Assembly (NCBI RefSeq): GCF_056746865.1
Contig: NZ_CM163382.1
Strand: one strand, 5' to 3'
Length of the DNA: 64,000 nt
The notes below the pieces were generated by a model. It was not told the DNA's origin. It made no database searches and was given only the letters and a program-made list of their open reading frames with translations. The position numbers and the translations under genes were made by a program. Below are positions 4,285 to 35,113 of this stretch, in pieces (within the stretch, counting starts at the first letter, position 1; each line of letters begins with the position of its first letter).

Positions 4285-5217
4285 TTACTTATTCTGACGC
4301 TGTGATGACATCAACGACGTCAGAAGTCGGTCTTTTTCCTGCCACAGTGAGTTCAGCCATTGCTGAAAATGGCGCTTAAAGCTTTTGTCATTGATGTAGT
4401 CGCCATGTAACTCATCGGCAATAGGCTGTAAATCCACATGTACGACAATTCGCGTCAGTTTACCGCTTAACATATCGAAGAACGGCTGACGGTTATTGTC
4501 CGGATAACATAGCGTAACATTAAGCAGTTTATCGAATTGTTTACCCAGTACATTTAGCGCCATCGCAATGCCTGCCGCCTTTGGTGGCAACAAGTTTTGA
4601 AAAGTGGAGTGCGTTTGCTGATGTTTTTCTTGCGTGAAACGGGAGCCTTCAACGAAATTAACAATGGTGGTGGGATGCAGGCGAAACTTTTCACAAGAAC
4701 GCCGAGTAGTTTCAACATCTTTACCACGTCTCTCCGGATGACGTAATAAATAAGCGCGGGAATAACGCTTCATAAACGGCATATCCAGCGCCCAGCATGC
4801 CAGGCCAAGAAAAGGCACCCAGGCCAGCTGCTGCTTGAGGAAATATTTATTCATCGGAATGTGCTTACGAAACAGCACGCACAGTACGACAATATCTGCC
4901 CAACTACGGTGGTTACAAATAAGCAGATACCAGTTTTTCTTACTTAACCCTTCCAGCCCGTGAACTTCCCATTGCAGGTGTGGGTTCAAATGCAGTAATA
5001 CCGCCAGACCTTCACACCAGCAATACATCATAAAATCACAAAAACGCGAAACCTTTCGCCAAATGACTGGCACAGGAAGCAATAGTTTTACAATCCCGGC
5101 AATGATGATCGGGACGGAGCAAAAAATAGTGACCAAAATGGTCAATACGATACTCAGCAAAAGGGTTATCGCAGCGAGTATTCTCGTCATAATGAATTTA
5201 TTCAAAAAGTTAGCCAT
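4285..5217 (-). CDS. yihG: PlsC-family acyltransferase YihG
   Basis: 310 aa from the internal Met (MANFLNKF...), HRSWADI acyltransferase motif. Confidence 0.85.
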
Positions 5218-5448
5218 AGACAGTGCGCTAAAGAAGCGCAAGGCGCAGATTTTAGCAGAAAACGACCCAAATAACGGATGATCCTTAAGGAGAAAAATAA
5301 TTCATATCTATCCACATTAGAAAAAATCCCATCATCTCAATTATTAGGGATGGTCTTATTTTTAACTTCATGAAAAACAAAGACAAACATCATGCTGTAA
5401 AAAGCATGATAATAAATTAAAAGCGATGTAAATAATTTATGCACAAAG

Positions 5449-5457
5449 TTATCCACA
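5449..5457 (+). promoter_or_regulatory. DnaA box (TTATCCACA) in the polA promoter region; a second 8/9 match lies at 5308-5316
   Basis: Exact consensus nonamer upstream of polA. Confidence 0.45.
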
Positions 5458-5580
5458 TGACGATTTGCGAGCGATCCAGAAGATCTACAAAAGATTTTCA
5501 CGAAAAGCGGTGAAAAACTCATGTTTTCATCCTGTCTGTGGCATCCTTTACCCATAATCTGATAAACAGGCACGGACATT

Positions 5581-8367
5581 ATGGTTCAGATCCCCCAAAA
5601 TCCACTTATCCTTGTAGATGGTTCATCTTATCTTTATCGCGCATATCACGCGTTTCCCCCGCTGACTAACAGCGCAGGCGAGCCGACCGGTGCGATGTAT
5701 GGTGTCCTCAACATGCTGCGCAGTCTGATCATGCAATATAAACCGACGCATGCAGCGGTGGTCTTTGACGCCAAGGGAAAAACCTTTCGTGATGAACTGT
5801 TTGAACATTACAAATCACATCGCCCGCCAATGCCGGACGATCTGCGTGCACAAATCGAACCCTTGCACGCGATGGTTAAAGCGATGGGACTGCCGCTGCT
5901 GGCGGTTTCTGGCGTAGAAGCGGACGACGTTATCGGTACTCTGGCGCGGGAAGCCGAAAAAGCCGGGCGTCCGGTGCTGATCAGCACTGGCGATAAAGAT
6001 ATGGCGCAGCTGGTGACGCCAAATATTACGCTTATCAATACCATGACGAATACCATCCTCGGCCCGGAAGAGGTGGTGAATAAGTACGGCGTGCCGCCAG
6101 AACTGATCATCGACTTCCTGGCGCTGATGGGTGACTCCTCTGATAACATCCCTGGCGTACCGGGCGTCGGTGAAAAAACCGCGCAGGCATTGCTGCAAGG
6201 TCTTGGCGGACTGGATACGCTGTATGCCGAGCCAGAAAAAATTGCTGGGTTGAGCTTCCGTGGCGCGAAAACAATGGCAGCGAAGCTCGAGCAAAACAAA
6301 GAAGTTGCTTATCTCTCATACCAGCTGGCGACGATTAAAACCGACGTTGAACTGGAGCTGACCTGTGAACAACTGGAAGTGCAGCAACCGGCGGCGGAAG
6401 AGTTGTTGGGGCTGTTCAAAAAGTATGAGTTCAAACGCTGGACTGCTGATGTCGAAGCGGGCAAATGGTTACAGGCTAAAGGGGCGAAACCCGCAGCCAG
6501 GCCGCAGGAAACCAGTGTTGCAGACGAAGCGCCAGAAGTGACGGCAACGGTGATTTCTTATGACAACTACGTCACCATCCTTGATGAAGAAACACTGAAA
6601 GCGTGGATTGCGAAGCTGGAAAAAGCGCCAGTATTTGCATTTGATACCGAAACCGACAGCCTCGATAACATCTCTGCCAACCTGGTCGGGCTTTCTTTTG
6701 CTATCGAGCCAGGCGTAGCGGCATATATTCCGGTTGCTCATGATTATCTTGATGCGCCCGATCAAATCTCTCGCGAGCGTGCACTCGAGTTGCTAAAACC
6801 GTTGCTGGAAAATGAAAAGGCGCTGAAGGTCGGGCAAAACCTGAAATACGACCGCGGTATTCTGGCGAATTACGGAATTGAGCTGCGTGGGATTGCGTTT
6901 GATACCATGCTGGAGTCCTACATTCTCAATAGCGTTGCCGGGCGTCACGATATGGACAGCCTCGCGGAACGTTGGTTGAAGCACAAAACCATCACTTTTG
7001 AAGAGATTGCGGGTAAAGGCAAAAATCAACTGACCTTTAACCAGATTGCCCTCGAAGAGGCCGGACGTTACGCCGCCGAAGATGCGGATGTCACCTTGCA
7101 GTTGCATCTGAAAATGTGGCCGGATCTGCAAAAACACAAAGGGCCGTTGAACGTCTTCGAGAATATCGAAATGCCGCTGGTGCCGGTGCTTTCACGCATT
7201 GAACGTAACGGTGTGAAGATCGATCCGAAAGTGCTGCACAATCATTCTGAAGAGCTCACTCTTCGTCTGGCTGAGCTGGAAAAGAAAGCGCATGAAATTG
7301 CAGGTGAGGAGTTTAACCTTTCCTCCACCAAGCAGTTGCAAACCATTCTGTTTGAAAAACAGGGAATTAAACCGCTGAAGAAAACGCCGGGTGGCGCGCC
7401 GTCAACGTCGGAAGAGGTACTGGAAGAACTGGCGCTGGACTATCCGTTGCCAAAAGTGATTCTGGAGTATCGTGGTCTGGCGAAGCTGAAATCGACCTAC
7501 ACCGACAAGCTGCCGCTGATGATCAACCCGAAAACCGGGCGTGTACATACCTCTTATCACCAGGCAGTAACTGCAACGGGACGTTTATCGTCAACCGATC
7601 CTAACCTGCAAAACATTCCGGTGCGTAACGAAGAAGGTCGTCGTATCCGCCAGGCGTTTATTGGGCCAGAGGATTATGTGATTGTCTCGGCGGACTACTC
7701 GCAGATTGAACTGCGCATTATGGCGCATCTCTCGCGTGACAAAGGCTTGCTGACCGCATTCGCGGAAGGAAAAGATATCCACCGGGCTACGGCGGCAGAA
7801 GTGTTTGGTTTGCCACTGGAAACCGTCACCAGCGAGCAACGCCGTAGCGCGAAAGCGATCAACTTTGGTCTGATTTATGGCATGAGTGCTTTCGGTCTGG
7901 CGCGGCAATTGAACATTCCACGTAAAGAAGCGCAGAAGTACATGGACCTTTACTTCGAACGCTACCCTGGCGTGCTGGAGTATATGGAACGCACCCGTGC
8001 TCAGGCGAAAGAGCAGGGCTACGTTGAAACACTGGACGGACGCCGTCTGTATCTGCCGGATATCAAATCCAGCAATGGTGCTCGTCGTGCAGCGGCTGAA
8101 CGTGCAGCCATTAACGCGCCAATGCAGGGAACCGCCGCCGACATTATCAAACGGGCGATGATTGCCGTTGATGCGTGGCTACAGGCTGAGCAACCGCGTG
8201 TGCGTATGATCATGCAGGTACACGATGAACTGGTATTTGAAGTTCATAAAGATGATGTCGATGCCGTCGCGAAGCAGATTCATCAACTGATGGAAAACTG
8301 TACCCGTCTGGATGTGCCGTTGCTGGTGGAAGTGGGGAGTGGCGAAAACTGGGATCAGGCGCACTAA
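5581..8367 (+). CDS. polA: DNA polymerase I
   Basis: 928 aa ORF; 5'-3' exonuclease, 3'-5' exonuclease and polymerase domains recognisable. Confidence 0.97.
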
Positions 8368-34327: not shown

Positions 34328-35113
34328 ATGAGCCTTACCGAACTAACCGGTAACCCGCGGCACGACCAACTCCTCATGCTGATCGCCGAGCGTGGGTATA
34401 TGAATATTGATGAGCTGGCAAATCTGCTGGATGTCTCCACGCAGACGGTCCGCCGGGATATTCGTAAATTAAGCGAGCAAGGGCTGATCACGCGCCATCA
34501 CGGTGGCGCGGGTCGGGCCTCCAGCGTCGTTAATACGGCGTTTGAGCAGCGTGAGGTTTCGCAAACTGAAGAGAAAAAAGCGATTGCCGAAGCGGTGGCA
34601 GACTATATTCCTGATGGTTCAACAATATTTATCACCATTGGTACGACCGTTGAACATGTCGCCCGGGCGTTACTTAACCACAATCATTTGCGGATAATCA
34701 CCAACAGCCTGCGTGTGGCGCATATTCTTTACCACAACCCGCGCTTTGAAGTGATGGTGCCCGGCGGTACGTTGCGCTCTCATAATAGCGGGATCATTGG
34801 CCCTTCAGCGGCGTCCTTTGTGGCTGATTTTCGTGCTGATTATCTGGTAACAAGCGTTGGGGCGATTGAGAGCGATGGCGCGTTGATGGAGTTTGATGTA
34901 AACGAAGCTAACGTGGTGAAAACGATGATGGCGCACGCGAGAAATATTCTGCTGGTCGCCGATCACACTAAGTATCATGCTTCGGCGGCGGTTGAAATTG
35001 GTAACGTGGCACAGGTCACTGCGCTCTTTACCGACGAGCTGCCGCCCGCTGCGCTAAAATCACGCTTACAAGACAGCCAAATTGAAATCATCCTTCCCCA
35101 GGAAGACGCGTAG
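34328..35113 (+). CDS. csqR: DeoR-family repressor of the sulfoquinovose cluster (CsqR/YihW)
   Basis: 261 aa from MSLTELTGNPRHD, DeoR HTH plus sugar-binding domain. Confidence 0.88.
   Translation: MSLTELTGNPRHDQLLMLIAERGYMNIDELANLLDVSTQTVRRDIRKLSEQGLITRHHGGAGRASSVVNTAFEQREVSQTEEKKAIAEAVADYIPDGSTIFITIGTTVEHVARALLNHNHLRIITNSLRVAHILYHNPRFEVMVPGGTLRSHNSGIIGPSAASFVADFRADYLVTSVGAIESDGALMEFDVNEANVVKTMMAHARNILLVADHTKYHASAAVEIGNVAQVTALFTDELPPAALKSRLQDSQIEIILPQEDA

Follow-up and report, generated by a model that had tools for sequence, protein, structure and literature searches.

DnaA boxes upstream of polA in Escherichia coli: a known DnaA site within a conserved promoter layout

Introduction

Is polA, the gene for DNA polymerase I, controlled by DnaA through boxes in the AT-rich DNA upstream of it, and if so, from which boxes and in what relation to the polA promoter? 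The question was raised by an initial annotation of a 64,000-nucleotide stretch of DNA (hereafter the window), which was made from the sequence alone and had pointed to two DnaA boxes, one perfect and one with a single mismatch, as a possible basis for DnaA-dependent modulation of polA expression. Here, we relate these boxes to the mapped polA promoter, to published DnaA binding data and to the corresponding region in other bacteria. The boxes very probably belong to the known high-affinity DnaA site of the polA promoter region, where DnaA bound to a double box stimulates polA.

Results and discussion

The yihG–polA intergenic region and its DnaA boxes

The 501 bases around the boxes are 100% identical to many E. 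coli genomes, in which they are annotated as the yihG–polA intergenic region. Window coordinates equal MG1655 coordinates minus 4041385; the ATG of polA, at 4046966 in MG1655, is therefore found at 5581, and the coding sequence of this gene, which is the one under control, extends from 5581 to 8367 on the plus strand. Its upstream neighbour, the acyltransferase gene yihG, is divergent (4285–5217, minus strand, according to the annotation) and lies outside the element. Over positions 5260–5500, the GC content is 0.26–0.32 compared to about 0.5 in the flanking genes, in line with the AT-richness initially claimed for this DNA.

Three DnaA boxes were found in this region, all on the plus strand and thus in the orientation of polA. 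The perfect nonamer TTATCCACA (5449–5457) matches the consensus at all nine positions, and its centre lies at about -101 from the transcription start site (TSS). The 8/9 match CTATCCACA (5308–5316), which carries a C at position 1, is centred at about -242. Both are located and matched exactly as annotated before; however, a third box, TTATGCACA (5437–5445; centre at about -113), had been overlooked. It matches the consensus at 8/9 positions, fits TTWTNCACA and lies 3 bp upstream of the perfect box on the same strand, so that the two make up a double DnaA box, of which TTATGCACA is the upstream and TTATCCACA the downstream half. The view of the individual boxes as sites consequently needs to be corrected: the high-affinity unit is the pair 5437–5445 and 5449–5457 rather than the perfect box by itself, and it is conservation that backs the distal box. 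The latter has no partner box 2–3 bp upstream, and its variant with C at position 1 also occurs inside a DARS2 double box.

Counted within the window, one perfect box compares to 0.40 expected, and at least one was present in 32 of 100 shuffled sequences, which is not significant. The significance of the perfect box must therefore be sought in evidence from outside the window.

Nonamers with up to one mismatch to TTATCCACA were counted separately. The 64 kb contain 29 of these compared to 13.3 ± 3.7 expected, a number that was not reached in any of 100 shuffles. This roughly twofold excess of near-boxes fits the published enrichment of DnaA boxes close to the origin (PMC12371093); oriC is about 115 kb away from where the window begins. 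Near-boxes form close pairs at 34674/34689, 11911/11955 and 17248/17291.

DnaA binding at the double box

A DnaA ChIP-seq study from 2024 (Stringer, Fitzgerald & Wade; PMC11317965) identified 16 DnaA-bound regions in E. coli, among them polA, with a 123-fold peak at MG1655 position 4046831. This corresponds to window position 5446, between the two adjacent boxes, and the double DnaA box tTTATGCACAaagTTATCCACAt listed for polA in Table 1 of that study (PMC11317965) corresponds to 5436–5458. The table coordinates fit NC_000913.3, since the polA peak lands on the double box in this version; the footnote of the study states.2. The oriC and dnaA entries of the table likewise agree with what we take to be their positions in NC_000913.3. 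In a comparison with the polA DnaA site described for E. coli K-12 (Quinones 1997; PMC11317965), locus and sequence are identical, and the double box shows no difference. The double box is thus the already known DnaA site of E. coli polA, and the initial finding as it was put adds nothing new to it. Binding in vivo, together with the conservation described below, rules out a chance origin of the double box.

The arrangement of the two boxes is shared with other DnaA sites. In the double boxes of purH, nrdA, mioC and DARS2, same-orientation nonamers are spaced by 2–3 bp with the consensus box downstream, as at polA, and the purH site TTACGCACAgagTTATCCACA has nearly the same form and strength (124-fold; PMC11317965). 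At purH, both halves and the 2–3 bp spacing were required for DnaA binding, and only 13 of the 32 perfect single boxes of the genome were bound (PMC11317965). Enrichment values at other sites were 14 for nrdA, 25 for mioC, 5 for dnaA and 4 for rpoH, while datA, DARS2 and oriC ranged from 78 to 218 (PMC11317965). The signal at polA thus far exceeds those of the other regulated promoters and comes closer to the range of datA, DARS2 and oriC, a hint that the site may do more than control transcription. The peak is centred on the double box without a shift toward the distal box and thus does not indicate strong distal occupancy in E. coli, at a resolution of ChIP-seq that is too low to separate the distal box, 141 bp away, as a site of its own.

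Regarding expression, polA is listed as activated by DnaA in stationary phase in three publications (PMC11317965, PMC8203912, PMC12371093), which cite Quinones et al. 1997 (Mol Microbiol 23:1193). To this extent, the proposed DnaA-dependent modulation of polA coincides with the published view, as does the ChIP peak on the double box, and DnaA-dependent polA expression is suggested by one 1997 study by way of the papers that cite it. In a 2025 proteome study of a datA, DARS1, DARS2 deletion, the DnaA regulon was largely unchanged, and the regulatory effect of DnaA may accordingly be small or saturated. In the literature on the site that we examined, there is no mention of a distal box or a central IHF-like motif, of a spacing of about 142 bp, of phasing to the -10 element or of conservation across three orders. 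The conserved distal box, the IHF-like site, their fixed spacing and the phasing may therefore be new detail.

The polA promoter

According to Table S1 of Mendoza-Vargas et al. 2009 (PMC2760140), the polA TSS lies 27 nt before the start codon, with ctgtGGCATCCTttac as the -10 box. The polA 5′ end is flagged there with "-10 ext (TG) = yes" and lies 1 nt from the known polAp start (PMC2760140); the TSS evidence considered here consists of one 454 read and the agreement with the database promoter. In the window, this promoter corresponds to the extended -10 element TGgCATCCT (5539–5547, plus strand), with the TG at 5539–5540, the hexamer CATCCT at 5542–5547 and the TSS at about 5554. With GGCATCCT as its extended -10 sequence and a TSS about 7 nt downstream, polAp qualifies as an extended -10 promoter of the sigma-70 type. 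Its -35 region (around 5519–5524, TCATGT) is unlike TTGACA. A generic sigma-70 promoter scan of positions 5100–5700 did not call any promoter; a -35 element is missing, and the -10 element with TG is non-consensus. We conclude that polAp is a weak sigma-70 promoter without a recognizable -35 element. The combination of an extended -10 element with no -35 element makes it plausible that polAp depends on an activator.

Relative to the mapped TSS, the three boxes are centred at -101, -113 and -242 upstream of polAp. The concern that they might lie far from any promoter is removed by this promoter, which is located downstream of them and starts transcription 27 nt before the ATG. We also considered TGGCAT as the -24 element of a sigma-54 promoter (TGGCAC-N5-TTGC), with DnaA in the role of an enhancer-binding protein. 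This was rejected, as no conserved -12 GC is present 10 bp downstream in any lineage; the scoring as a sigma-70 -10 element and the TSS 7 nt after the element also speak against a sigma-54 promoter.

Conservation of boxes, spacing and -10 element

In order to compare the region between species, 80 gammaproteobacterial polA loci were retrieved with the PolA N-terminus. A perfect TTATCCACA in polA orientation was present within 300 bp upstream of polA in 36 of the 80 loci. It was found 92–185 bp before the polA ATG at every locus of the Enterobacterales, Vibrionales and Alteromonadales type and was absent upstream of polA in the Pasteurellales, Pseudomonas, Halomonas and Cellvibrionales of this set. 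The 300-bp upstream regions (23.8 kb) contain 39 perfect boxes, whereas the rest of the same loci (334.6 kb) contains three, which corresponds to an enrichment of about 180-fold. All lineages keep an ACA that ends 3 bp before the perfect box.

The distal box is conserved as well. Enterics carry ATATCCACA or CTATCCACA at this site, other lineages TTTTCCACA, TTGTCCACA or a perfect box. The distance from the distal xTxTCCACA box to the proximal box is 141–143 bp in Enterobacterales and Vibrionales, 143–148 bp in Alteromonadales and 129–134 bp in Pseudoalteromonas, and in 34 species, the two boxes are consistently about 142 bp apart. Additional loci were obtained by scanning metagenomes with the pattern TTATCCACA-N36-66-TGGCATSCT. 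This matched 120 loci, of which 18 were identified as polA by tblastn; the remaining 102 non-polA matches (89 distinct) served as negative controls. The distal TCCACA core was located 133–146 bp upstream in 14 of the 18 metagenomic polA loci and in none of the 89 distinct non-polA matches to the same pattern.

The boxes are accompanied by a particular promoter element. Every lineage with the box has TGGCAT[CG]CT, and none of the 44 loci that lack the box does, showing that this promoter type and the DnaA module go together. When E. coli strains, a divergent Escherichia, E. albertii and two Citrobacter were aligned, the inter-box spacer proved to be saturated with substitutions but did not contain a single indel. 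Four islands were invariant: besides the core promoter (-61 to +27), these were the two box sites, distal and double, and TAAnnnnnTGAAA, which is the sole invariant island inside the inter-box spacer in Escherichia and Citrobacter. An information-content profile of 16 Enterobacterales and Vibrionales revealed the same four footprints. Upstream gene content varies: yihG neighbours polA in just 7 of the 80 loci, and the box layout is kept beside other upstream genes, such as a gene of about 208 aa in the direction of polA or a divergent one of about 217 aa. In several genera, the co-directional upstream gene ends about 380 bp before polA, while the upstream gene is divergent from polA in E. coli and in Alteromonadales. 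Judged from the aligned sequences, the distal box, the IHF-consensus motif, the double box and the -10 element form one layout across three orders, whatever the upstream gene. The possibility that the boxes might not be conserved is therefore refuted by a conservation that reaches deep across Enterobacterales, Vibrionales and Alteromonadales.

Two further observations concern the spacer and the distribution of the module. The spacer (5317–5436) is very divergent among close relatives (L002, L003, L004, L087), although their core promoter, 100 bp away, is identical. In one of these, labelled E. coli Z1323HEC0067 (L087), a match covers just the downstream 48% of the 363-bp intergenic query with 85.6% identity, yet the spacer is free of indels in all of them. 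Such divergence could reflect relaxed constraint on sequence with strict constraint on length, or a replacement by recombination. Moreover, the Pasteurellales loci (L015–L018) have neither DnaA boxes nor the TGGCATSCT -10 element upstream of polA. If this order is, as we take it, close to Enterobacterales and Vibrionales, the whole module was lost or replaced in it.

Helical phasing between the box and the -10 element

Depending on the lineage, the proximal box is located 47–52, 58–61, 69–72, 82–83, 88–92 or 137 bp from TGGCAT. For 22 genus-level groups, this phasing is reflected by a Rayleigh R of 0.58–0.62 at a period of 10.5–11 bp (p of about 3e-4 to 6e-4), with clusters that are 3–5 bp wide. 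The 18 metagenomic polA loci show distances of 48–50, 56–61 and 67–73 bp, with none at 51–55 or 62–66 bp. After deduplication to 14 metagenomic polA lineages, R was 0.49–0.58 with a simulated p of 0.01–0.03, compared to 0.05–0.13 in the non-polA metagenome controls. Combining both sets (n = 32) resulted in an R of 0.55 and a p of about 6e-5, whereby the lineages are treated as independent though they are not fully so.

With the TSS placed 15 bp after the T of TGGCAT, the centre of the perfect box falls near -60, -70, -81, -93 and -101. Class I activators such as CRP are positioned at -61.5, -71.5, -82.5 and -92.5. As far as these sequence distances can tell, the box stands in a fixed stereochemical relation to the mapped promoter. 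The shift of the polA box across lineages resembles class I promoters of CRP, at which the activator site also shifts in whole helical turns. The two cases differ in that the activator is DnaA instead of CRP, that the E. coli site at -101/-113 is further out than the classical examples, and that a contact with the alpha CTD is hypothetical. The mechanism of transcription activation by DnaA has been called poorly understood (PMC11317965), and polA provides a natural experiment on it: the same double box is found at five or more whole-turn distances from the same unusual -10 element across genera, always together with a distal box and, at a constant spacing, an IHF-type motif. Both face-of-helix activation and DnaA looping aided by IHF thereby become directly testable. 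The value of the comparative result as such is modest.

An IHF-like motif and GATC sites accompany the boxes

The IHF-like motif TAACTTCATGAAA (5363–5375, minus strand; centre at about -185), which has two mismatches to YAANNNNTTGATW, occupies roughly the middle of the inter-box spacer. At the same position, the IHF consensus WATCAANNNNTTR is found with zero or one mismatch in Enterobacter, Photorhabdus, Providencia, Acerihabitans, Aliivibrio and Enterovibrio; in Alteromonadales, the motif is located about 10 bp away in the opposite orientation. Matches with up to one mismatch accumulate at -90 to -71 relative to the proximal box, with 26 matches compared to 1–3 per 10-bp bin elsewhere; 25 of 48 loci have a match that starts at -92 to -68. 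A separate second peak of IHF matches turned out to be an artefact of the DnaA box. PMC8407004, which we searched for IHF ChIP evidence, mentions neither polA nor yihG. IHF binding at the spacer motif is therefore a prediction, which is uncertain for the E. coli copy with its two mismatches.

Two GATC (Dam) sites, at 5473–5476 and 5482–5485 (5473–5486 together), are located downstream of the double box, the second inside AGATCT (5481–5486). At the dnaA promoter, this hexamer has been described as a box specific for ATP-DnaA (PMC8203912), and by analogy, it might have such a role at polA. Most enterics have a pair of GATC sites, 9–13 bp apart, shortly downstream of the proximal box. In Vibrio, clusters of 3–6 GATC directly follow the distal box in the loci listed (L034, L037, L021, L049). 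The GATC sites that come with the module suggest sequestration by SeqA or a control through methylation, similar to oriC and dnaAp.

Other features of the spacer are probably incidental. Two terminator-like hairpins with T-runs (5331–5354, plus strand; 5388–5411, minus strand) and a possible ORF of 16 codons with its ATG at 5371 were noticed, and none of these is conserved in E. albertii or Citrobacter. A small or structured RNA in the spacer was discarded too, since an Rfam search at a permissive threshold returned nothing above sub-threshold noise.

How DnaA might act at polA

Taken together with the published activation, our preferred explanation is that DnaA would bind as a dimer to TTATGCACA-aag-TTATCCACA (the double box, 5437–5457; centre about 107 bp upstream of the start of polAp at about 5554) and stimulate polA transcription, as reported mainly for stationary phase. 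DnaA would work from one face of the helix at class I-like positions, and it might act either through a contact with RNA polymerase or through the shape of the upstream DNA. A bend introduced into the AT-rich spacer by IHF could allow the DnaA molecules at the distal and double boxes to meet, and this contact would stabilize the double-box complex. Such a looped and stabilized complex could explain the unusually high ChIP signal. An involvement of IHF could also tie polA activation to the growth phase. IHF is most abundant on entry to stationary phase. This peak could account for the reported stationary-phase character of the activation. What speaks against a simple activator is the position of the site, which at -101/-113 is far upstream.

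A more far-reaching reading, which we put forward tentatively and hold to be somewhat doubtful, is that the whole arrangement is an ancient three-part DnaA–IHF–DnaA module, looped in a datA-like manner and phase-locked to the extended -10 element, which would couple the supply of DNA polymerase I to the status of DnaA and IHF and might also serve as a site of DnaA titration or nucleotide switching. The module would then have originated in the common ancestor of Enterobacterales, Vibrionales and Alteromonadales, with the E. coli site 121 kb from oriC, and the status of DnaA and IHF would stand for cell cycle and growth phase. A comparison with known sites bears on this reading. Like polA, datA and DARS2 have DnaA boxes that flank an IHF site within about 150–165 bp and show a very high DnaA ChIP occupancy, with the IHF site of polA being a predicted one. 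The conserved layout may explain why the ChIP signal of polA is as strong as that of datA or DARS2. In contrast to these two, the module at polA is linked to a promoter through its helical phasing, and the order of its parts differs from that of datA: in datA, the double box is upstream of the IHF site, followed by box 3 and box 4, while a single box, the IHF-like site and the double box follow each other at polA. The upstream region of purH in MG1655 contains no IHF match with up to one mismatch, and only a 2-mismatch box about 135 bp further out. We did not find the three-part arrangement of polA at purH, datA or DARS2 of MG1655; given that it is missing at purH, the layout seems to be specific for polA.

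Alternative explanations

The same resemblance raises the question of whether the polA site is mainly a locus of DnaA management like datA or DARS2, which titrates DnaA or changes its nucleotide state and affects polA secondarily. This we consider unlikely. Its parts are indeed datA-like, with DnaA boxes on both sides of a central IHF site within about 150–165 bp (box 2, IHF site and box 3 of MG1655 datA: 4392744, 4392809 and 4392906, respectively), and the 123-fold ChIP enrichment is in the range of datA, DARS2 and oriC, above ordinary regulated promoters. A spacer that is fixed in length and free in sequence is reminiscent of the known conserved spacing of oriC; the carriers of the module are Enterobacterales, Vibrionales and Alteromonadales, and polA belongs to the origin-proximal zone of high DnaA-box density. 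However, the DnaA module always occurs together with polA and the lineage-specific -10 element and is absent wherever this element is absent, and helical phasing to the -10 element makes sense only if the module interacts with the promoter. The parts are also ordered and oriented differently from those of datA, as the polA double box is downstream of the IHF-like site and the distal site is single. In addition, no paper was found that names the polA site as a regulator of DnaA, and a strain without hda, datA, DARS1 and DARS2 has been described as stripped of all four extrinsic regulators of DnaA-ATP/ADP conversion.

Phasing also bears on an indirect mode of action, according to which DnaA, with or without IHF, counters silencing of the H-NS type or insulates polAp from upstream transcription. 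For a roadblock or a generic anti-silencer, phasing to the -10 element is not expected, and the divergent upstream genes in E. coli and Alteromonadales leave no read-through that would need to be blocked; we therefore regard indirect action as very unlikely. It would suit the GC content of 26–32% over 5260–5500, as far as anti-silencing is concerned, and the position of the boxes far upstream, from -101 to -242. Furthermore, the co-directional upstream gene of several genera makes read-through into polA possible there, and DnaA roadblocks to elongating RNA polymerase have been described (PMC11317965).

Finally, the notion that the distal 8/9 box or all boxes are products of chance in AT-rich DNA, or serve yihG, can be dismissed for all practical purposes: although a single perfect box is statistically ordinary in the window and 91 bp separate the distal box from the start codon of yihG, the roughly 180-fold enrichment upstream of polA over the 80 loci, the fixed spacing of about 142 bp, the distal core in 14 of 18 metagenomic polA loci compared to 0 of 89 chance matches and the in vivo binding in ChIP-seq argue against chance, and a function of the distal box in yihG regulation was discarded because yihG neighbours polA in only 7 of the 80 loci.

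A recurrent DnaA box at another junction

The metagenome scan also brought up a recurrent arrangement outside polA. In soil and rhizosphere contigs (L098, 9190–9265, and about 15 similar ones, including L093, L101, L110 and L118), a perfect TTATCCACA is followed 48 bp later by TGGCATGCT in GC-rich DNA. This recurrence of TTATCCACA and TGGCATGCT is located at a divergent junction between a mutY-like gene (HhH-GPD and NUDIX_4) and a gene of the DciA family (PF05258, E = 9e-13). The conserved DnaA box upstream of the helicase-loader gene dciA may represent a regulatory link.
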